Notes under the pieces: model-generated
What the model saw: the letters and a program-made list of their open reading frames with translations, nothing else
What the model was told of the DNA's origin: nothing
Databases searched by the model: none
Made by a program: the position numbers and the translations under genes
NCBI RefSeq assembly: GCF_009931435.1
Contig: NZ_CP043414.1
Length of the DNA: 64,000 bases
Origin: Escherichia coli
GTDB lineage: Bacteria; Pseudomonadota; Gammaproteobacteria; Enterobacterales; Enterobacteriaceae
Strand: one strand, 5' to 3'
Part shown: positions 938 through 32,690 of the stretch, in pieces
Numbering within the stretch: the first letter of the stretch is position 1
How the letters are laid out: each line of letters opens with the position of its first letter

Positions 938-2077
938 ATGAGCGCGGGAAGCCCAAAATTCACCGTTCGCCGCATTGCGGCTTTGTCACTGGTTTCGCTA
1001 TGGCTGGCAGGCTGTTCTGACACTTCAAATCCACCGGCACCGGTCAGCTCCGTTAATGGCAATGCGTCTGCAAACACCAATTCTGGTATGTTGATTACGC
1101 CGCCGCCGAAAATGGGGACGACGTCTACAACGCAGCAACCGCAAATTCAGCCGGTACAGCAGCCACAAATTCAATCTGCACAACAACCGCAAATCCAGCC
1201 GGTGCAGCCAGTTGCTCAGCCGCCGGTACAGATGGAAAACGGACGCATCGTCTACAACCGTCAGTATGGGAACATTCCGAAAGGCAGTTATAGCGGCAGT
1301 ACATACACCGTGAAAAAAGGCGACACACTTTTCTATATCGCCTGGATTACTGGCAATGATTTCCGTGACCTTGCTCAGCGCAACAATATTCAGGCACCAT
1401 ACGCGCTGAATGTAGGTCAGACCTTACAGGTGGGTAATGCTTCCGGTACGCCAATCACTGGTGGAAATGCCATTACCCAGGCCGATGCAGCAGAGCAAGG
1501 AGTTGTGATCAAGCCTGCACAAAATTCCACCGTTGCTGTTGCGTCGCAACCGACAATTACGTATTCTGAGTCTTCGGGTGAACAGAGTGCTAACAAAATG
1601 TTGCCGAACAACAAGCCAACTGGGACCACGGTCACAGCGCCTGTAACGGTACCAACAGCAAGCACAACCGAGCCGACTGTCAGCAGTACATCAACCAGTG
1701 CGCCTATCTCCACCTGGCGCTGGCCGACTGAGGGCAAAGTGATCGAAACCTTTGGTGCTTCTGAGGGGGGTAACAAGGGGATTGATATCGCAGGCAGCAA
1801 AGGACAGGCAATTATCGCGACCGCAGATGGCCGCGTTGTTTATGCCGGTAACGCGCTGCGCGGCTACGGTAATCTGATTATCATCAAACATAATGATGAT
1901 TACCTGAGTGCCTACGCCCATAACGACACAATGCTGGTCCGGGAACAACAAGAAGTGAAGGCGGGGCAAAAAATAGCGACTATGGGTAGCACCGGAACCA
2001 GTTCAACACGCTTGCATTTTGAAATTCGTTACAAGGGGAAATCCGTAAACCCGCTGCGCTATTTGCCGCAGCGATAA
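938..2077 (+). CDS. nlpD: murein hydrolase activator lipoprotein NlpD (LysM + M23/LytM domains)
   Basis: 379-aa ORF with lipoprotein signal (LAGCS), Q/P-rich repeat region, C-terminal M23 peptidase-like domain; lies upstream of rpoS. Confidence 0.95.
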
Positions 2078-2139
2078 ATCGGCGGAACCAGGCTTTTGCT
2101 TGAATGTTCCGTCAAGGGATCACGGGTAGGAGCCACCTT

Positions 2140-3132
2140 ATGAGTCAGAATACGCTGAAAGTTCATGATTTAAATGAAGATGCGGAATTTGATGAGAACG
2201 GAGTTGAGGTTTTTGACGAAAAGGCCTTAGTAGAAGAGGAACCCAGTGATAACGATTTGGCCTAAGAGGAACTGTTATCGCAAGGGGCCACACAGCGTGT
2301 GTTGGACGCGACTCAGCTTTACCTTGGTGAGATTGGTTATTCACCACTGTTAACGGCCGAAGAAGAAGTTTATTTTGCGCGTCGCGCACTGCGAGGAGAT
2401 GTTGCCTCCCGCCGCCGGATGATCGAGAGTAACTTGCGTCTGGTGGTAAAAATTGCCCGCCGTTATGGCAATCGTGGTCTGGCTTTGCTGGATCTTATCG
2501 AAGAGGGCAACCTGGGGCTGATCCGCGCGGTAGAGAAGTTTGACCCGGAACGTGGTTTCCGCTTCTCAACATACGCAACCTGGTGGATTCGCCAGACGAT
2601 CGAACGGGCGATTATGAACCAAACCCGTACTATTCGTTTGCCGATTCACATCGTAAAGGAGCTGAACGTTTACCTGCGAACCGCACGTGAGTTGTCCCAT
2701 AAGCTGGACCACGAACCAAGTGCGGAAGAGATCGCAGAGCAGCTGGATAAGCCAGTTGATGACGTCAGCCGTATGCTTCGTCTTAACGAGCGCATTACCT
2801 CGGTAGACACCCCGCTGGGTGGAGATTCCGAAAAAGCGTTGCTGGACATCCTGGCCGATGAAAAAGAAAACGGCCCGGAAGATACCACGCAAGATGACGA
2901 TATGAAACAAAGCATCGTCAAATGGCTGTTCGAACTGAACGCCAAACAGCGTGAAGTGCTGGCACGTCGATTCGGTTTGCTGGGGTACGAAGCGGCAACA
3001 CTGGAAGATGTAGGTCGTGAAATTGGCCTCACCCGTGAACGTGTTCGCCAGATTCAGGTTGAAGGCCTGCGCCGTTTGCGCGAAATCCTGCAAACGCAGG
3101 GGCTGAATATCGAAGCGCTGTTCCGCGAATAA
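2140..3132 (+). pseudogene. rpoS: RNA polymerase sigma factor RpoS reading frame interrupted by an in-frame ochre codon (TAA at 2263-2265, codon 42); an in-frame GTG at 2299 opens a 277-codon ORF covering sigma regions 1.2-4
   Basis: ATG 2140 translates [41 protein letters not shown] then TAA; the ORF track only opens at 2299 in the same frame; the rest matches RpoS (…[15 protein letters not shown]…). Confidence 0.85.
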
Positions 3133-3148
3133 GTAAGCATCTGTCAGA

Positions 3149-3181
3149 AAGGCCAGTCTCTTATGAGGCTGGCCTTTTTCT
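3149..3181 (+). terminator. rho-independent terminator downstream of rpoS
   Basis: Inverted repeat aaaggccagtctc/ttatgaggctggccttt followed by a T-run. Confidence 0.7.
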
Positions 3182-3252
3182 TTTGTATGGGGAGTTGGTG
3201 TGTTTCGTCGCCTGGATAAGACACGTCAGCGTCCCATCCGGCAATCAACATC

Positions 3253-3660
3253 CTATTTGCTCATCATCTTGCGCACCAGCTGCATAAACAGCTCCTGCTC
3301 TTCTCCACTCAAACGCCCCAAAAATTCCTCATCCACACTGTCGCCAATCGGTATCGCCGCAGCAAGTACCTTTTCTCCTTCGGCAGTCAGCCAGACAAAG
3401 CGTCGCCGCTTATCAGCGGTGTCATGTTCACGTCTGACTAAGCCACGATTTTCCATTCTTGCCAACATTTCTGCCAGCGTTGCTTTGGTGCTGACGGCTG
3501 CTTCCATCAGTGCCACCTGTTCGATACCAGGTTTATCAGCAATGGCGCGCATCACCGCGTACTGTGGTTTGGTCAGGTCAGGTAACTCGTGCTGCCAGCG
3601 GGCCGTATGCTGCTGAAAAAGCTGTCGTAACTGATGGAACGCTTTATTTCGTAACGCCAT
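3253..3660 (-). CDS. hosA: MarR/SlyA-family transcriptional regulator (HosA-like)
   Basis: 135-aa ORF with winged-helix MarR-like sequence; sits divergently upstream of the UbiX/UbiD decarboxylase genes, the arrangement described for hosA in pathogenic E. coli. Confidence 0.65.
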   Translation of the reverse strand: MALRNKAFHQLRQLFQQHTARWQHELPDLTKPQYAVMRAIADKPGIEQVALMEAAVSTKATLAEMLARMENRGLVRREHDTADKRRRFVWLTAEGEKVLAAAIPIGDSVDEEFLGRLSGEEQELFMQLVRKMMSK

Positions 3661-3806
3661 GTAAACTCCGGGCTAATTCTCTGTCGCTATCATAGCGGTT
3701 TTTCAGTGACGAAGAAGATGTTGTTACTTTTCAATCCTTGCCGCTGTGGAAATGAAGGAGTATGTTAATAATAACGTTCGTATACGAACAATTAAGAGAG
3801 TAAGCA

Positions 3807-4400
3807 ATGAAACTGATCGTCGGGATGACAGGGGCTACCGGTGCGCCTCTTGGTGTGGCATTACTGCAAGCGTTGCGCGAAATGCCGGATGTCGAGACTC
3901 ATCTGGTGATGTCGAAGTGGGCGAAAACCACTATTGAACTGGAAACGCCTTACAGCGCTCGCGATGTTGCCGCCCTCGCTGACTTCAGCCATAACCCGGC
4001 GGATCAGGCTGCGACCATCTCTTCCGGCTCCTTTCGTACCGACGGCATGATCGTTATTCCATGCAGTATGAAAACGCTCGCCGGTATCCGCGCTGGTTAC
4101 GCCGATGGTCTCGTAGGGCGCGCGGCGGACGTCGTGCTCAAAGAAGGCCGCAAACTGGTGCTGGTGCCGCGTGAAATGCCGCTTAGCACCATCCATCTCG
4201 AAAATATGCTCGCACTTTCGCGCATGGGCGTGGCGATGGTGCCGCCGATGCCTGCCTTTTATAACCATCCCGAAACGGTAGATGACATTGTCCACCACGT
4301 GGTAGCCCGCGTGCTGGATCAATTTGGCCTCGAACATCCTCACGCCAGGCGCTGGCAAGGGTTGCCGCAGGCCCGGAATTTTTCTCAGGAGAATGAATAA
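3807..4400 (+). CDS. ecdB: UbiX/Pad1-family flavin prenyltransferase (decarboxylase subunit B)
   Basis: 197-aa ORF MKLIVGMTGATGAPLGV..., flavoprotein fold typical of UbiX/Pad1; stop overlaps the next start (ATGA), indicating an operon. Confidence 0.75.
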   Translation: MKLIVGMTGATGAPLGVALLQALREMPDVETHLVMSKWAKTTIELETPYSARDVAALADFSHNPADQAATISSGSFRTDGMIVIPCSMKTLAGIRAGYADGLVGRAADVVLKEGRKLVLVPREMPLSTIHLENMLALSRMGVAMVPPMPAFYNHPETVDDIVHHVVARVLDQFGLEHPHARRWQGLPQARNFSQENE

Positions 4401-5827
4401 TGGCATTTGATGATTTACGCAGCTTCTTACAGGCGCTTGATGACCACGGCCAGTTACTGAAAATCAGCGAAGAGGTGAACGCGGAACCGGATCTGGCAGC
4501 CGCTGCCAACGCCACCGGGCGTATCGGCGACGGCGCGCCCGCGCTGTGGTTTGATAATATTCGCGGCTTTATCGATGCCCGCGTTGCAATGAACACCATC
4601 GGTTCCTGGCAGAACCACGCAATTTCTCTCGGTCTGCCGCCAAACACCCCGGTTAAAAAACAGATTGATGAGTTTATCCGCCGCTGGGATAACTTCCCGA
4701 TAGCCCCGGAGCGCCGTGCGAATCCTGCCTGGGCGCAGAACACCGTCGATGGCGACGAGATCAATTTGTTCAATATCCTGCCGCTGTTTCGTTTAAACGA
4801 TGGCGATGGCGGTTTCTATCTCGACAAAGCGTGCGTGGTTTCCCGCGATCCGCTCGATCCGGATAACTTCGGCAAGCAGAACGTCGGCATCTATCGCATG
4901 GAAGTGAAGGGTAAGCGTAAGCTCGGCCTGCAACCGGTGCCGATGCACGATATCGCCCTGCATCTGCATAAAGCGGAAGAACGTGGTGAAGATTTGCCAA
5001 TTGCCATCACGCTGGGTAACGATCCGATCATCACCCTGATGGGCGCCACCCCGCTGAAATATGATCAATCGGAGTACGAAATGGCGGGCGCGCTACGCGA
5101 AAGCCCGTACCCGATCGCCACCGCCCCGCTGACCGGTTTTGATGTGCCGTGGGGTTCAGAAGTGATCCTCGAAGGGGTTATCGAAAGCCGCAAACGTGAA
5201 ATCGAAGGGCCGTTCGGTGAGTTTACCGGGCACTACTCCGGTGGGCGCAACATGACCGTAGTGCGCATCGATAAAGTCTCTTACCGCACCAAACCGATTT
5301 TTGAATCGCTCTATCTCGGCATGCCGTGGACCGAAATCGACTACCTGATGGGGCCTGCCACCTGCGTGCCGCTTTACCAGCAGTTGAAAGCCGAGTTCCC
5401 GGAAGTGCAGGCGGTGAACGCTATGTACACCCACGGCCTGCTGGCGATTATCTCCACCAAAAAACGCTATGGCGGCTTTGCCCGCGCAGTGGGCCTGCGT
5501 GCGATGACCACGCCGCACGGTCTGGGTTATGTGAAGATGGTGATTATGGTCGATGAAGACGTTGACCCGTTCAACCTGCCGCAGGTGATGTGGGCGCTCT
5601 CTTCGAAAGTGAACCCGGCAGGGGATCTGGTGCAGTTGCCGAATATGTCAGTACTGGAACTCGACCCTGGCTCAAGCCCGGCGGGGATCACCGACAAGCT
5701 GATTATCGACGCCACTACGCCTGTCGCCCCGGACAACCGTGGTCACTACAGCCAGCCGGTGGTGGACTTACCGGAAACCAAAGCCTGGGCTGAAAAACTG
5801 ACCGCTATGCTGGCCGCACGTAAATAA
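4400..5827 (+). CDS. ecdC: UbiD-family reversible hydroxyarylic-acid decarboxylase (subunit C)
   Basis: 475-aa ORF; UbiD-like length and sequence; directly follows the UbiX-like gene. Confidence 0.75.
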   Translation: MAFDDLRSFLQALDDHGQLLKISEEVNAEPDLAAAANATGRIGDGAPALWFDNIRGFIDARVAMNTIGSWQNHAISLGLPPNTPVKKQIDEFIRRWDNFPIAPERRANPAWAQNTVDGDEINLFNILPLFRLNDGDGGFYLDKACVVSRDPLDPDNFGKQNVGIYRMEVKGKRKLGLQPVPMHDIALHLHKAEERGEDLPIAITLGNDPIITLMGATPLKYDQSEYEMAGALRESPYPIATAPLTGFDVPWGSEVILEGVIESRKREIEGPFGEFTGHYSGGRNMTVVRIDKVSYRTKPIFESLYLGMPWTEIDYLMGPATCVPLYQQLKAEFPEVQAVNAMYTHGLLAIISTKKRYGGFARAVGLRAMTTPHGLGYVKMVIMVDEDVDPFNLPQVMWALSSKVNPAGDLVQLPNMSVLELDPGSSPAGITDKLIIDATTPVAPDNRGHYSQPVVDLPETKAWAEKLTAMLAARK

Positions 5828-5837
5828 GGAGAACAAG

Positions 5838-6074
5838 ATGATTTGTCCACGTTGTGCCGATGAACAGATTGAAGTGATGGCGAAATCGCCGGTAAAAGAT
5901 GTCTGGACGGTCTACCAGTGCCAGCATTGCCTTTATACATGGCGCGATACTGAACCGCTACGCCGCACCAGCCGCGAACATTATCCCGAAGCCTTCCGCA
6001 TGACGCAGAAAGATATTGATGACGCGCCGATGGTGCCGAGCATCCCGCCGCTGCTGGCGGAAGGTAAGCGCTAA
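5838..6074 (+). CDS. ecdD: small zinc-ribbon subunit D of hydroxyarylic-acid decarboxylase
   Basis: 78-aa ORF with CxxC…CxHC motif (MICPRCADEQ…YQCQHCLY), typical of KpdD/YclD-type subunits. Confidence 0.65.
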   Translation: MICPRCADEQIEVMAKSPVKDVWTVYQCQHCLYTWRDTEPLRRTSREHYPEAFRMTQKDIDDAPMVPSIPPLLAEGKR

Positions 6075-6075
6075 A

Positions 6076-6105
6076 TAAAAGGTCCGATGCCCATCGGACC
6101 TTTTT
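6076..6105. terminator. bidirectional rho-independent terminator between convergent ecdD and ygbN
   Basis: A-run, perfect hairpin ggtccgatg/catcggacc, T-run. Confidence 0.7.
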
Positions 6106-6112
6106 ATTAAGG

Positions 6113-7477
6113 TCAAATTACCGCCCATACGCACCAGGTAATTAAGAATCCGGTAAAACCGAGAATGGTCGTTAACACTGTCCAGGTTTTCAGACCGTCT
6201 GCTACCGACAACCCCAGATATTTGGTCACAATCCAGAACCCTGAGTCATTAATATGTGACGCGCCAAGCCCACCAAAGCAGGCTGCCAGCGTCACCAATA
6301 CGCACTGAATCGGATTCAATCCCATCACCGCTTCTGAGAGTAACCCGCCGGTTGTCAGGATTGCTACGGTTGCTGACCCCTGCGATGCACGCAGCGCCAG
6401 TGAAATAATAAATGCGGCTGGTAACAGAGGCAGGTCAATCATTTGTAGCATGTTGGCAAGGGCTTTGCCGACGCCCGATTCCACCAGCACTTTGCCAAAT
6501 ACCCCTCCAGCACCAGTAACCAAAATCACTACCGCCGCAGTGGGAAGGGCTGAGCCCATAATGTCGCTGGTGTGTTGTAAGCTCCAGCCGCGACGTAAAG
6601 CCAATAACCAGAATGCCAGCACCAGCGCAATCATTAGAGCTACCATTGGTGAGCCGATCAGCTGTAGCGTACCAAGCAGGGGATGCGAAGGCGGCATCAG
6701 TGTTGCGGAAACCGTACCCGCCATGATAATCGCGATAGGAATAACAATTAGCGAGGTGACCAGCGCGACGCCCGGTGGATTTATTTTATCGCTTAATTTT
6801 GTCGCGCCTTCCTCACTGGCCGGAGCCAGTTGCATCTGTTCCAGTACTTCCACCGACATCGCATATTGGCGCTTATTGATTATTTTCGCTGCAAAGTAGC
6901 CAACAATCCCTACGGGAATAGAAATCGCAATACCGATGATGGTTAGCCAGCCGATGTCTGCGTGGAGTAACCCCGCTGCGGCGACAGGGCCTGGATGCGG
7001 CGGTACCGCCACATGAACAGTTAGCATGATTCCAGCGACAGGCAGGCCAAATTTGAGTGGCGATATTTTGGCAACCTTGGCAAAACCGTAAATGATTGGC
7101 GCAAGAATAATAAAGCCGACATCAAAGAAGACGGGAATACCGAGGAAGAACGCTGCCAGAGTCAGCGCAGCGATAGTTCGTTTGTCACCTAACTTGCGAC
7201 TGAAATAATTAGCCAGTGACTCTGCACCACCAGAGTGTTCGATCATACGCCCCAGCATAGCGCCCAGACCAATAATAATAGTGACGGAACCAAGCACACC
7301 GCCCATCCCGGCGATCATCACTTTACCCACTTCGCCCGCCGGTATACCCGCCGCAAGTGCGACTAACAGGCTGACGAGGAGCAGAGCAACGAATGGTTGT
7401 ACCTTTGCCTTGATGACCAGCAGCAACAGCATGATTACGCCAGTTAACGCAATGCATAACAATGTAATTGTGGACAT
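6113..7477 (-). CDS. ygbN: GntP-family permease (putative L-threonate/D-erythronate transporter)
   Basis: 454-aa polytopic membrane ORF; GntP-like; conserved position next to ygbM. Confidence 0.85.
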   Translation of the reverse strand: MSTITLLCIALTGVIMLLLLVIKAKVQPFVALLLVSLLVALAAGIPAGEVGKVMIAGMGGVLGSVTIIIGLGAMLGRMIEHSGGAESLANYFSRKLGDKRTIAALTLAAFFLGIPVFFDVGFIILAPIIYGFAKVAKISPLKFGLPVAGIMLTVHVAVPPHPGPVAAAGLLHADIGWLTIIGIAISIPVGIVGYFAAKIINKRQYAMSVEVLEQMQLAPASEEGATKLSDKINPPGVALVTSLIVIPIAIIMAGTVSATLMPPSHPLLGTLQLIGSPMVALMIALVLAFWLLALRRGWSLQHTSDIMGSALPTAAVVILVTGAGGVFGKVLVESGVGKALANMLQMIDLPLLPAAFIISLALRASQGSATVAILTTGGLLSEAVMGLNPIQCVLVTLAACFGGLGASHINDSGFWIVTKYLGLSVADGLKTWTVLTTILGFTGFLITWCVWAVI

Positions 7478-30019: not shown

Positions 30020-30426
30020 GTGAAAAGGTGGTGTTCAGTCAACTGAGCCGTAAATTTATTGATGAGAACGATGCTACGCCCGCCGAGGCGCAGCAGGTGG
30101 TCTATTACAGCCTGGCGATTGGTCACCACCTTGGGGTTATCGATTGCCTGGAAGCCGCGCTCACCTGCCCGTGGGATGAATATCTGGCATGGATTGCCAC
30201 TCTGGAGGCGGGCAGCGAAGCCCGCCGCAAAATGGAAGGCGTGCCAAAATATGGTGAGATCGTTATCGACATTAACCATGTGCCGATGCTGGCCAACGCA
30301 TTCGATAAAGCCCGGGCAGCGCAAACTTCGCAGCAGAAGGAATGGAGTACCATGCTGTTAAGTATGCTGCATGATATTTATCAGGAAAATGCCATCTATT
30401 TGATGGTGAGGAGACTGCGTGACTGA
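30016..30426 (+). CDS. hycH: formate hydrogenlyase maturation protein HycH
   Basis: 136-aa ORF at conserved position. Confidence 0.9.
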
Positions 30427-30889
30427 CGTTTTACTCTGTGTTGGCAATAGCATGATGGGCGATGATGGCGCAGGTCCGCTGCTGGCGGAAAAGTGCGCCG
30501 CCGCGCCGAAAGGTAACTGGGTGGTGATTGACGGCGGAAGCGCACCGGAAAACGACATTGTCGCCATCCGCGAACTGCGCCCGACGCGACTGCTGATTGT
30601 CGACGCTACGGATATGGGGCTAAACCCCGGCGAGATCCGCATCATCGACCCGGATGACATCGCTGAGATGTTTATGATGACTACCCATAACATGCCGCTG
30701 AACTACCTTATCGACCAGTTAAAAGAAGACATTGGCGAAGTGATTTTCCTCGGCATCCAGCCGGATATCGTCGGTTTTTACTACCCGATGACCCAGCCGA
30801 TTAAAGATGCGGTAGAAACCGTTTATCAACGACTTGAAGGCTGGGAAGGGAATGGTGGATTTGCGCAGTTAGCGGTGGAAGAAGAGTAG
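30419..30889 (+). CDS. hycI: hydrogenase 3 maturation endopeptidase HycI
   Basis: 156-aa [23 protein letters not shown]…, HybD/HycI protease signature. Confidence 0.92.
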   Translation: MTDVLLCVGNSMMGDDGAGPLLAEKCAAAPKGNWVVIDGGSAPENDIVAIRELRPTRLLIVDATDMGLNPGEIRIIDPDDIAEMFMMTTHNMPLNYLIDQLKEDIGEVIFLGIQPDIVGFYYPMTQPIKDAVETVYQRLEGWEGNGGFAQLAVEEE

Positions 30890-30913
30890 TTTTTCAGTAA
30901 GGAATTCAGGGAA

Positions 30914-31687
30914 TTGAAAATCAGAACAGGGATGTGCGCTTTTTTATTTTGCTTAGTGCTTCCTGCGCAGGCTACCAGCTTTACCGAATATCTGCCAATG
31001 AGTGACAGCGAATACGCGCAAAAGCGGGCGCTGAAACCTCTCCTGACTATGCCTTATTATACCGAGCAAACCTGGCATTTTAGAAAAGTGGGCGTTGCTG
31101 GCGTGACGCTTGAGAAGATGCCAAATGAAGAGGATTACTGGCAATTAACTGCTAAAGACCGCGCCGGTAAATCCTGGAAGGTGCCTGTGGGTATGCTGGC
31201 AAATATGGCGGGCAAAGGGCAACTCTATCGCGCCGATCTGGATCGTAACGGCATTCAGGATCTGGTTATCTGGTTACCAAGTGCTGGTAATGGTCTGGCT
31301 CCTTATGCACATTTAATCCTTATGACGTTCACGCGCGATGGTCGTCCCTGTGTCTTTGAACCCTGGGGATTCTACACCGCAAGCAAAACTGGCGTAGATG
31401 ATTTGCTGGATTTGCAAGGCAATGGCCACACACAATTGCTGGATATGCAGTTTAATTCTGGTTACTGGATAACCAGTCTGTATCAGGTAAAAGACGCCAA
31501 ATGGCAACGTGTTCACGGCTGGTTTGGCAAGTTAAGCTATCCCGCGCTCACGCGTTTTACTTATACCCCCAACCGTAAACTCGTCCTCAAACCCATTGCC
31601 GGGCGTGACCCGCAAACGGAAGATTTAGCGCTGACGCAGCGTTGTTTGAGAACAGGGGATATGCTTGAAGGGGTGAATCAGAACTGA
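30914..31687 (+). CDS. hypothetical secreted protein with two DxDxNG-type motifs
   Basis: 257-aa ORF; N-terminal signal peptide (…CAFLFCLVLPAQATSF); motifs ADLDRNGIQDLV and DDLLDLQGNGHTQLL resemble FG-GAP/calcium-binding loops; no K-12 gene between hycI and ascB. Confidence 0.55.
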   Translation: MKIRTGMCAFLFCLVLPAQATSFTEYLPMSDSEYAQKRALKPLLTMPYYTEQTWHFRKVGVAGVTLEKMPNEEDYWQLTAKDRAGKSWKVPVGMLANMAGKGQLYRADLDRNGIQDLVIWLPSAGNGLAPYAHLILMTFTRDGRPCVFEPWGFYTASKTGVDDLLDLQGNGHTQLLDMQFNSGYWITSLYQVKDAKWQRVHGWFGKLSYPALTRFTYTPNRKLVLKPIAGRDPQTEDLALTQRCLRTGDMLEGVNQN

Positions 31688-31849
31688 CTTTTTGCAGAGT
31701 GGGTATGAGGATTTTGGGGGAGAATTATATCGCGCGCAAGTGTTTACATATTGTGAACTTGGATTTGGTGAGCTATAGTTTCTGAACACATAAGGATAGA
31801 ACTCGCAGATGTGGCTGTTTACTTACTATAAGGAAGTTAAAACTTAAAA

Positions 31850-32161
31850 ATGCACATCATTTCGAAAGCGCCATTTGAAGAGTCTGCGCGCAAATATCCT
31901 AACGACGCTCTGGCTCTACACTCATTGTATCGGGTTATTAAGGAAACGGATTTTTCTACGCCAGAAGAAATGCGAACGGCGTTTCCCAACCTCGACAATT
32001 TTAAATATCGTAACAAATGGTACGTTCTGGATGTAGGCGGGAACAATCTTAGGGTTATTGCCTACATAAACTTTGTTAATAAGCGGTTCTTTGTGAAGCA
32101 CATAACGAATCATGCCGAGTATGACAAACTGACACGTTACTACAGAGAGAACAGAGAATGA
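31850..32161 (+). CDS. higB: type II toxin, HigB-family mRNA interferase (RelE/ParE superfamily)
   Basis: 103-aa ORF; region FPNLDNFKYRNKWYVLDVGGNNLRVIAY aligns with the E. coli HigB segment FPSLDNFKYLDKHYVFNVGGNELRVVAM; toxin-first order with overlapping ATGA junction. Confidence 0.8.
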   Translation: MHIISKAPFEESARKYPNDALALHSLYRVIKETDFSTPEEMRTAFPNLDNFKYRNKWYVLDVGGNNLRVIAYINFVNKRFFVKHITNHAEYDKLTRYYRENRE

Positions 32162-32577
32162 CTGCTAATGCTGCACGCGCTGTTAAAGCAACAAGAGAAC
32201 TGGTCAATGCAGTCCCCTTTCTGGGAGGCAGTGACTCAGAAGATGATTATCGTGAAGCACTGGAACTGGTCGAATATTTGATTGAAGAAGATGACACCAA
32301 TCCACTTATCGACTTTCTGGCGAGCCGCATTGCAGAGTATGAAAACAACCACGAAAAGTTTGCAGAGTTCGACAAAGCCGTTGCTGCAATGCCGGTTGGC
32401 GTGGCGTTACTTCGCACGTTGATTGATCAACATAATCTGACCTATGCGGATTTGAAGAACGAAATCGGCTCTAAATCCCTGGTCAGTCAGATTTTGTCTG
32501 GACAAAGATCCCTGACGATATCCCACATTAAGGCACTTTCAGCCCGATTTGGCGTTAAGCCGGAATGGTTTCTTTGA
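32158..32577 (+). CDS. higA: type II antitoxin HigA (XRE-family HTH)
   Basis: 139-aa ORF; C-terminal HTH (…IGSKSLVSQILSGQRSLTISHIKALSARFGV…) closely resembles K-12 HigA; start overlaps higB stop. Confidence 0.8.
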   Translation: MTANAARAVKATRELVNAVPFLGGSDSEDDYREALELVEYLIEEDDTNPLIDFLASRIAEYENNHEKFAEFDKAVAAMPVGVALLRTLIDQHNLTYADLKNEIGSKSLVSQILSGQRSLTISHIKALSARFGVKPEWFL

Positions 32578-32602
32578 TTTTGACTGATGCCAAACGCCAG
32601 AT

Positions 32603-32684
32603 TGCCCGATGCGCTGCGCTTATCGGGCCTACATGTCGCACGAACTATGTAGGCCGGATAAGGCGTTCACGCCGCATCCGGCAC
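32603..32684. repeat. REP/BIME palindromic unit cluster
   Basis: Two inverted REP-like units (gcccgatgcgctgcgcttatcgggcctaca and gtaggccggataaggcgttcacgccgcatccggca) between higA and ascB. Confidence 0.8.
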
Positions 32685-32690
32685 GTTTGC

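Follow-up and report, generated by a model that had tools for sequence, protein, structure and literature searches.

The hyc operon of Escherichia coli K-12 consists of nine genes (hycABCDEFGHI), and the Hyc proteins reside in the cytoplasm or in the inner membrane. In the stretch of E. coli DNA studied here, 64,000 nucleotides of contig NZ_CP043414.1 (assembly GCF_009931435.1; hereafter the window), hycI is followed on the same strand by an open reading frame (ORF) of 257 codons. This gene shares the operon and promoter context of the K-12 hyc genes, but K-12 has nine genes and what reads as the scar of a tenth, and the predicted product of the window gene is exported, unlike the Hyc proteins. 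The gene product is already catalogued (WP_032184988.1, 'hypothetical protein') and uncharacterised; its repeat type is known, and there is a known class of protective proteins of the periplasm that it resembles.

Among described architectures, the FG-GAP/VCBS repeats (PF01839 and PF13517), which build the integrin alpha propeller, have the same DxDxNGxxD loop between two beta-strands and the same four-stranded blades as those predicted for the window protein. The Ca2+-binding blades of integrin alpha-V also align with the profile of the protein's family. The window protein differs in having approximately three predicted blades, in contrast to a closed and usually seven-bladed propeller, and its family adds further conserved elements (an N-terminal YLP[LM], GRP and GYWIT) and, in most members, a unique C-terminal domain.

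Small protective proteins provide another comparison. X-Tfi, PliI and Tsi1 are alike in their beta-propeller-like topology and inhibit peptidoglycan hydrolases through the loop between strands 2 and 3, which enters the target's active site (Y170, S104 and S109, respectively) (PMC10933484). PliI of Aeromonas hydrophila (PDB 3od9/4pj2; PF16743), an inhibitor of i-type lysozymes, is a periplasmic protein with a loop-bearing beta-sheet, as is predicted for the window protein, but at 122 aa it is half as large. X-Tfi XAC2610 (PDB 4qtq), the Xanthomonas immunity protein to the type IV secretion system (T4SS) effector X-Tfe XAC2609, is of similar size (267-aa precursor) and contains a conserved, stabilising Ca2+-binding loop at residues 151-159 (PMC10933484). 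Its likeness to the window protein would consist of this conserved acidic loop and of a functional loop approximately 11 residues further on, for which the model of the window protein offers a candidate. However, the two proteins are only 10% identical, and XAC2610 is a lipoprotein whose gene adjoins that of its effector, whereas the window protein has a predicted signal peptidase I (SPase I) signal and no effector neighbour. CarG of Pectobacterium (PDB 4o7j; PF21955), a carbapenem intrinsic-resistance protein, is a small periplasmic protective protein, as the window protein may be, but it belongs to the car antibiotic cluster, protects against a small molecule and matches the window protein weakly and partially.

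Our analyses very probably establish, as one joint reading, that the ORF is a functional gene for a Sec-exported protein. The mature protein of 237 aa would be all-beta, with approximately three FG-GAP blades, one canonical putative Ca2+ loop (D108/D110/N112/D116) and one degenerate loop. It would belong to an unnamed family and be encoded by the tenth gene of the hyc operon, which has been lost repeatedly. With good confidence, it would be produced along with formate hydrogenlyase when cells are in anaerobic, formate-inducing conditions. The coordinates of the gene and its features are collected in Table 1.

The Prokaryotic Genome Annotation Pipeline (PGAP) starts this gene at an ATG at position 30932. 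We prefer the TTG at 30914 as the true start, because the start codon and its AAGGA box are conserved while the PGAP ATG aligns to TGG elsewhere. In Escherichia, Salmonella, Phytobacter and Klebsiella, the codon aligned to the ORF start is TTG, ATG or GTG followed by a lysine codon (NTG-AAR), and the AAGG(G)AA Shine-Dalgarno box is conserved in Escherichia, Phytobacter and K. spallanzanii. The codon aligned to the PGAP start is TGG in Salmonella, Phytobacter and Klebsiella, and this start was rejected.

Read from the TTG, the ORF is present as first described, at a length of 257 aa, and the signal peptide of the original prediction is borne out by the features expected of one: a positively charged n-region (MKIRTG), a hydrophobic core (MCAFLFCLVLP) and an AxA cleavage site (AQA) followed by TS. 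The Kyte-Doolittle mean over 10 residues reaches 2.99 in the core. Export as a lipoprotein or through the Tat pathway was considered and rejected, as the sequence has neither a lipobox nor a twin-arginine (RR) motif. A hydrophobic stretch also precedes the YLPL-like motif in 71 of the 76 family members that have this motif, and the AlphaFold confidence is lower over the N-terminal 20 or so residues, with means of 74 and 67 for blocks of 10 residues compared with 89-98 in the core.

The selection acting on the gene was assessed on ten orthologous sequences, drawn from Escherichia, Salmonella, Phytobacter and K. spallanzanii. The Nei-Gojobori ratio of nonsynonymous to synonymous substitution rates (dN/dS) was 0.11-0.37 in all 45 pairwise comparisons. 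Because this holds for every pair, the ORF is under purifying selection, although more relaxed than that on its neighbours hycG, hycH and hycI (dN/dS 0.00-0.10). The low ratios persist to dS values of approximately 1.5-2.7, and between genera dN/dS is 0.11-0.19. The G + C content at third codon positions (GC3) is 0.51 in the ORF versus 0.61-0.63 in the hyc genes. The original prediction had left room for a decayed or unexpressed remnant; the dN/dS values rule out a pseudogene, and the presumed Salmonella orthologue is expressed.

The paired DxDxNG motifs that had been noticed are both present in the ORF, as DLDRNGIQDL (D108-L117, nt 31235-31264) and DLQGNGHTQL (D166-L175, nt 31409-31438). In the six frames of the window (127,996 residues), the pattern D.[DNQ].[DN]G..[DEQ][LIVM] has two matches, both of them in this ORF, and when the ORF was shuffled 200,000 times, at least one match arose in 110 shuffles and two matches in none. 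Since the pattern was drawn up post hoc from the motifs, these counts are supportive only, and conservation in 101 homologues is the stronger evidence that the paired loops are real. In loop 1, D108 is conserved in 99 of these homologues, D110 in 97, N/D112 in 99, G113 in 93 and D116 in 99, and nothing else in the family is as well conserved as this loop (96-98%). The corresponding numbers for loop 2 are 85 (D166), 75 (D/N168), 92 (D/N170), 80 (G171) and 80 (E/Q/D174), with the family consensus D-L-[DN]-x-D-G-x-A-E. A further conserved loop, S123-Y131 (consensus T-G-G-N-G-L-A-P-[ST]; G127 92%, P130 87%), is placed by the model in the loop-1 blade, between its strands 2 and 3 and beside the putative Ca2+ loop. 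The family alignment contains no conserved His or Cys that would point to Ni or Fe binding.

The window protein matched nothing in Pfam, NCBIfam, PADLOC or PHROGs, in agreement with the earlier view that it is uncharacterised and of no nameable family, and in the literature that could be searched, no study of the gene was found. Against PF01839 and PF13517 specifically, the protein had no match at E <= 1. Among the homologues, 65 of 101 match PF13517 (FG-GAP_3; best E 1.5e-7) and 38 of 101 match PF01839 (FG-GAP) at E <= 0.1, and in a search of the PDB with the family profile, loop 1 was aligned to the integrin alpha-V Ca2+ loops DLDQDGFNDI and DIDKNGYPDL at sub-threshold values (E >= 0.06). 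Thus, together with the blade-type model, the assignment of the loops to the FG-GAP/VCBS type proved right at the level of the family, while the window protein itself stays below threshold. The PDB profile searches gave sub-threshold matches only, including an NTF2-like design at E 0.76. In Pfam, two of the 101 members matched PliI weakly (PF16743, E 0.012, which is below significance) and two were CarG-like (E 0.069); the window protein had no match to PF16743.

An exhaustive profile search retrieved 492 clusters (at 50% identity) with E <= 1e-3, 90 of them with E <= 1e-30. A typical member of this family is 330-360 aa long and comprises a signal peptide, the Y-L-P-[LIM] motif, a beta domain of approximately 220 aa and a C-terminal domain of approximately 100 aa, which most relatives carry and the enterobacterial members lack. 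Close homologues occur solely in Escherichia, Salmonella (69% identity), K. spallanzanii and Phytobacter (about 62-64%), under database names no more specific than 'hypothetical protein' or 'periplasmic or exported protein'. Farther out, the matches in named genomes are in metagenome-assembled genomes (MAGs) of Acidobacteriota and in Thiotrichales. It is strongly supported, as a part of the joint reading, that the window protein represents the branch found in enterobacteria, within a family that is unnamed and mostly environmental.

Several relatives have neighbourhoods worth recording. In a Bryobacterales MAG, two paralogues lie in tandem, head to tail (2004-3005, 333 aa; 3014-4024, 336 aa). 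In Thiolinea disciformis DSM 14473, a 326-aa member (locus positions 5815-6795) is located 95 nt 3' of hypF-hypD-hypE on the same strand. On a metagenome contig (3-4835), a 344-aa member divergently adjoins a MagC (PF06672) gene and a gene for a 1,301-aa protein, in possibly an alpha-2-macroglobulin-type operon; this arrangement was seen once. A 1.6-kb contig in a 'Collinsella sp.' MAG has the order hycI-ORF-higA-ascB with 84-98% amino acid identity to E. coli, and it is almost certainly an Escherichia contaminant.

An initial AlphaFold model based on 14 sequences was unstable, with a predicted local distance difference test score (pLDDT) near 60 in four of five models, and was replaced by a model based on 101 sequences. 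The AlphaFold2 prediction on 101 sequences reached a pLDDT of 93.7 and a predicted template modelling score of 0.89, and all five models agree (92-94). It consists of a low-confidence N-terminal helix, which corresponds to the signal peptide, and an all-beta domain of about three four-stranded blades, in which each DxDxNG loop joins the first two strands of a blade. A Foldseek search of the PDB returned nothing at E <= 0.001, and no solved structure covers the whole fold. The highest Foldseek probability was that of CarG (0.80), followed by integrin alpha-V (0.69). The compact matches were PliI (122 aa), XAC2610 (209 aa, 141 aligned) and CarG (157 aa), and the structural matches also included many propeller fragments, from the lectins UmbA4 and PVL and from integrin alpha.

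The genomic context suggests that the gene belongs to the hyc operon. On the plus strand, no terminator-like site was found between 30300 and 31687, and because the 24-nt gap after hycI is free of such a site, the ORF appears to close the operon. It follows hycI on the same strand in every enterobacterial locus examined: directly in E. coli, E. whittamii, Escherichia sp., E. albertii and Salmonella (where the order is hycI-ORF-hydN-hypF), after a spacer of approximately 100 nt in Phytobacter, and behind an inserted SymE-like gene in K. spallanzanii. Between the window and Salmonella, the dS of the ORF (1.55) is like that of hycI (1.58), which is consistent with a shared vertical descent of the two genes. 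Most likely, the ancestor shared by Escherichia and Salmonella already had the ORF, directly after hycI.

Expression data are available for Salmonella. In S. Typhimurium LT2, STM2844, an unnamed gene between hycI (STM2845) and hydN (STM2843), is listed by Samuels et al. as the last gene of 'STM2853-44 hycABCDEFGHI-' (PMC3844500), and its sigma-54-dependent microarray signal was 9.4-fold, compared with 12-fold for hycI and 6.4-fold for hycH (PMC3844500, Additional file 1). The most likely explanation is that the ORF is the co-transcribed tenth gene of the sigma-54/FhlA-dependent hyc operon, which for E. coli is inferred. These observations (synteny after hycI in four genera, a dS like that of hycI, the scar in K-12 and co-regulation of the presumed orthologue with hyc) speak against the accessory island in which the gene had been placed.

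At least 80% of the ORF is present in 1,462 of 5,426 complete E. coli genomes, and some of it in 2,299; all copies are chromosomal and nearly always single. A mobile or plasmid origin was rejected, because a tblastn search of plasmids yielded only two chromosome-sized records (4.8 Mb and 0.73 Mb), and the ORF is chromosomal. In K-12 MG1655 (NC_000913.3, 2842415-2842572), the 158-bp spacer between hycI and ascB corresponds to window positions 30890-32690 and keeps the Shine-Dalgarno site of the ORF, approximately 17 nt at its 5' end and approximately 25 nt at its 3' end, after which a repetitive extragenic palindromic (REP) element follows at once; judged from this alignment, the spacer is a deletion scar of the ORF. 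The ORF was not found in O157:H7 Sakai. In ST131, a deletion of window positions 31096-32128 has left a 61-aa stub, annotated as a hypothetical protein, together with higA, and this deletion accounts for odd 'ygjM' fusion proteins among the homologue matches. Repeated loss of the ORF, including in K-12, O157:H7 Sakai and ST131, is thus strongly supported within the joint reading. In E. albertii NBRC 107761 (locus 6001-6770), the orthologue is split over two frames near codon 80 and is apparently a frameshifted pseudogene in this type strain.

The alleles of the gene in E. coli are diverse. An allele at least 99% identical to that of the window was found in two of the 5,426 genomes, and most alleles are 85-95% identical at the nucleotide level; the closest non-identical protein, at 96%, is that of Escherichia sp. 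MOD1-EC7003. Within the species, the dS of the ORF reaches 0.5, above that of hycG and hycH, which suggests old allelic lineages or recombination at the locus.

As to function, we consider it possible, although well short of probable, that the product works on its own in the periplasm, where it would bind or inhibit an incoming peptidoglycan hydrolase. This reading is favoured because of the predicted periplasmic location, the fold class of the best compact structural matches and the solitary position of the genes. In the periplasm, Ca2+ at loop 1 would stiffen the central blade, and the binding surface presented by this blade would be the adjoining conserved G-N-G-L-A-P-[STY] loop. In this way, the protein would block an incoming hydrolase, either of the host lysozyme type or a bacterial muramidase or amidase, in the way of the periplasmic PliI, X-Tfi (XAC2610) and Tsi1, the loop between strands 2 and 3 plugging the target. 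Through its link to the hyc promoter, the protein would be made under anaerobic, formate-rich (gut-like) conditions. Approximately 14 distinct non-enteric contexts revealed no recurrent neighbour and no adjacent effector, a pattern that fits periplasmic lysozyme inhibitors, which are encoded by solitary genes, better than effector-immunity pairs.

Several observations weigh against this reading or the framework around it. Searches of Pfam and profile searches of the PDB gave no sequence-level link of the window protein to PliI, CarG, Tsi1 or X-Tfi, and no target enzyme is encoded nearby. Every structural match is weak, lectin-type propellers score as well as the inhibitor-type matches, and the likening of the GNGLAP loop to the inhibitory loops is drawn from topology. 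In the window protein itself, ligand positions 3 and 9 of loop 2 are Q, which makes this loop degenerate. The co-regulation with hyc is known for STM2844 only, the orthology of which is presumed from the gene order in another S. enterica genome, not from the LT2 sequence. In addition, the ORF is missing from approximately 73% of complete E. coli genomes, and any protection by its product must therefore be dispensable.

A doubtful alternative, though one to be taken seriously, is a lectin-like periplasmic or surface protein that binds glycans in a Ca2+-dependent manner through its FG-GAP blades, without inhibiting any enzyme; the ligand might be peptidoglycan, the core of lipopolysaccharide (LPS), a capsule or a host sugar, and the protein might oligomerise into a fuller propeller. 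The Foldseek list does include polysaccharide lyases with FG-GAP propellers, such as YesW, and the Ca2+ loops are the top-conserved feature of the family, but only about three blades are predicted, neither a full propeller nor a known sugar-binding motif was identified, and the compact matches of similar size are inhibitor or immunity proteins (PliI, XAC2610 and CarG) and not lectins. Another alternative is a cognate or orphan immunity protein against a peptidoglycan-hydrolase effector of a type VI secretion system (T6SS) or T4SS, as are Tsi1 and X-Tfi. The fold likeness to XAC2610, Ca2+ loop included, would suit this role, as would the tandem paralogues in the Bryobacterales MAG, the high allelic diversity in E. 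coli (dS up to 0.5) and a weak SUKH-1 immunity-like neighbour in one related locus (E 1.9e-4, below the cutoff of Pfam). We nevertheless regard it as improbable: no effector gene is adjacent in the window or in approximately 20 contexts examined, XAC2610 is a lipoprotein paired with its effector while the window protein carries a predicted SPase I site and lacks a partner, and dN/dS values of 0.11-0.37 give no sign of diversifying selection.

The position of the gene raises the further alternative of a periplasmic accessory factor of formate hydrogenlyase (FHL) and its hydrogenase 3, acting on the periplasmic loops of HycC/HycD or in the handling of H2, formate or metal. The gene follows hycI in four genera, directly so in Escherichia and Salmonella, the presumed Salmonella orthologue is co-regulated with hyc, and the distant homologue of T. 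disciformis directly follows hypF-hypD-hypE. However, this last adjacency is missing from the nearest relatives, since the homologue of Thiofilum and a 57%-identical one adjoin yajC-secDF; acidobacterial homologues have no hydrogenase neighbours, and the other contexts are unrelated. Moreover, the catalytic arm of FHL faces the cytoplasm, the protein has no conserved His or Cys for Ni or Fe, and K-12, O157:H7 Sakai, ST131 and approximately 73% of complete E. coli genomes keep hyc without an intact gene, K-12 having an active FHL. Such a factor is accordingly quite improbable. Equally so is the broader proposal that the hyc operon of wild enterobacteria has a periplasmic tenth component functionally coupled to FHL, through the HycC/HycD arm or as a link between fermentation and the envelope; if true, this component would have been missed for decades because K-12 has deleted the gene. 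The gene could, finally, be a decaying, functionless remnant transcribed solely by read-through from hycI. Repeated loss and truncation (the K-12 scar, the ST131 stub of 61 aa, the frameshifted copy of the E. albertii type strain and numerous clusters of fragments), the missing C-terminal domain of the family and a GC3 of 0.51, below the 0.61-0.63 of the hyc genes, are what a remnant would show. On the other hand, purifying selection has acted over a distance of approximately 1.5 substitutions per synonymous site, the gene has kept its start codon, Shine-Dalgarno site, signal peptide and Ca2+ loop intact, full-length copies occur in 1,462 complete E. coli genomes, the gene has a very wide distribution in Salmonella enterica, and a compact fold is predicted confidently by AlphaFold, so that we consider a remnant very unlikely indeed.

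Table 1. The hycI-distal gene of the window, its sequence features and the adjoining elements (positions in the 64,000-nucleotide window)
Feature	Position	Strand	Remarks
CDS, exported FG-GAP-like protein, 257 aa	30914..31687	+	Stop codon included; TTG start, read from sequence
Shine-Dalgarno-like AAGGA	30899..30903	+	10 nt 5' of the TTG start; from sequence
Predicted Sec/SPase I signal peptide, residues 1-20, MKIRTGMCAFLFCLVLPAQA, then TS	30914..30973	+	Sequence features and hydropathy
YLPM, near-invariant N-terminal Y-L-P-[LIM] family motif	30989..31000	+	P28 in 97/101
Loop 1, D108-L-D-R-N-G-I-Q-D116, full DxDxNGxxD FG-GAP/integrin-type putative Ca2+-binding loop	31235..31261	+	Conservation, integrin alignment
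Conserved loop S123-A-G-N-G-L-A-P-Y131, candidate ligand- or enzyme-contacting loop	31280..31306	+	Conservation; strands from model
Loop 2, D166-L-Q-G-N-G-H-T-Q174, second FG-GAP-type loop, degenerate	31409..31435	+	Conservation
hycI, upstream gene	30419..30889	+	24-nt gap to the ORF, without terminator-like site
higB/helix-turn-helix (HTH) antitoxin cassette, 900 bp, separate from the ORF	31688..32587	+	Insertion after the ORF stop, compared with E. coli E69
higB	31850-32161	+	
HTH antitoxin	32158-32577	+	
5-bp direct repeats ACTGA flanking the cassette	31683-31687 and 32583-32587		
Sigma-70-like promoter TTGTGA-17-TATAGT	31751-31779		

The ORF had also been described as lying beside a toxin-antitoxin module, and comparison among strains does not support the two as a unit. 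E. coli E69 has the order hycI-ORF-REP-ascB without the module, so that higBA represents a separate insertion. The ORF likewise occurs without higBA in E. whittamii, Escherichia sp. MOD1-EC7003, Salmonella and Phytobacter, and ST131 has higA without an intact ORF. No constant co-occurrence of the ORF and higBA was thus found across the loci compared, and the module is independent of the ORF. Compared with PADLOC, the higB/HTH pair matched PD-Lambda-2_A (E 1.9e-15) and PD-Lambda-2_B (E 2.1e-14). Because the PD-Lambda-2_B match covers just the first 115 or so of 402 positions, the pair resembles a part of this candidate anti-phage system.

In E. coli, the DNA that follows hycI forms a structural hotspot. 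REP-like palindromic repeats are located at 32590-32690, between the antitoxin gene and ascB, and because of these repeats a 2-kb query of the region matched E. coli genomes in a median of 31 megablast places each. In O104:H4, higB has been lost and IS621 gained, and in some E. coli strains (e.g., GmF052), a small hypothetical gene and hydN-hypF lie downstream, with the asc operon replaced. In K. spallanzanii, the copy of the ORF is preceded by the SymE-like gene, and behind it lie a ParD/ParE pair and another SymE-like gene. The hycI-asc junction has thus gathered different toxin modules in different genera.

Our results indicate that the textbook nine-gene hyc operon is a deletion derivative found in K-12. 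In Salmonella and in about a quarter of E. coli, hyc most likely ends with a gene for an exported protein, its co-induction by FhlA and sigma-54 being taken from the presumed Salmonella orthologue. This gene also draws attention to a sizeable family (approximately 490 clusters at 50% identity) that has neither a Pfam or NCBIfam model nor a close solved structure, and the predicted FG-GAP Ca2+ blades of which place it in the broad architectural class of PliI, X-Tfi and Tsi1. If the protein is indeed an inhibitor of peptidoglycan hydrolases, it would be a new, anaerobically induced factor of envelope protection in gut enterobacteria; if it is not, the gene would still be a testable candidate, represented by STM2844 across Salmonella enterica.

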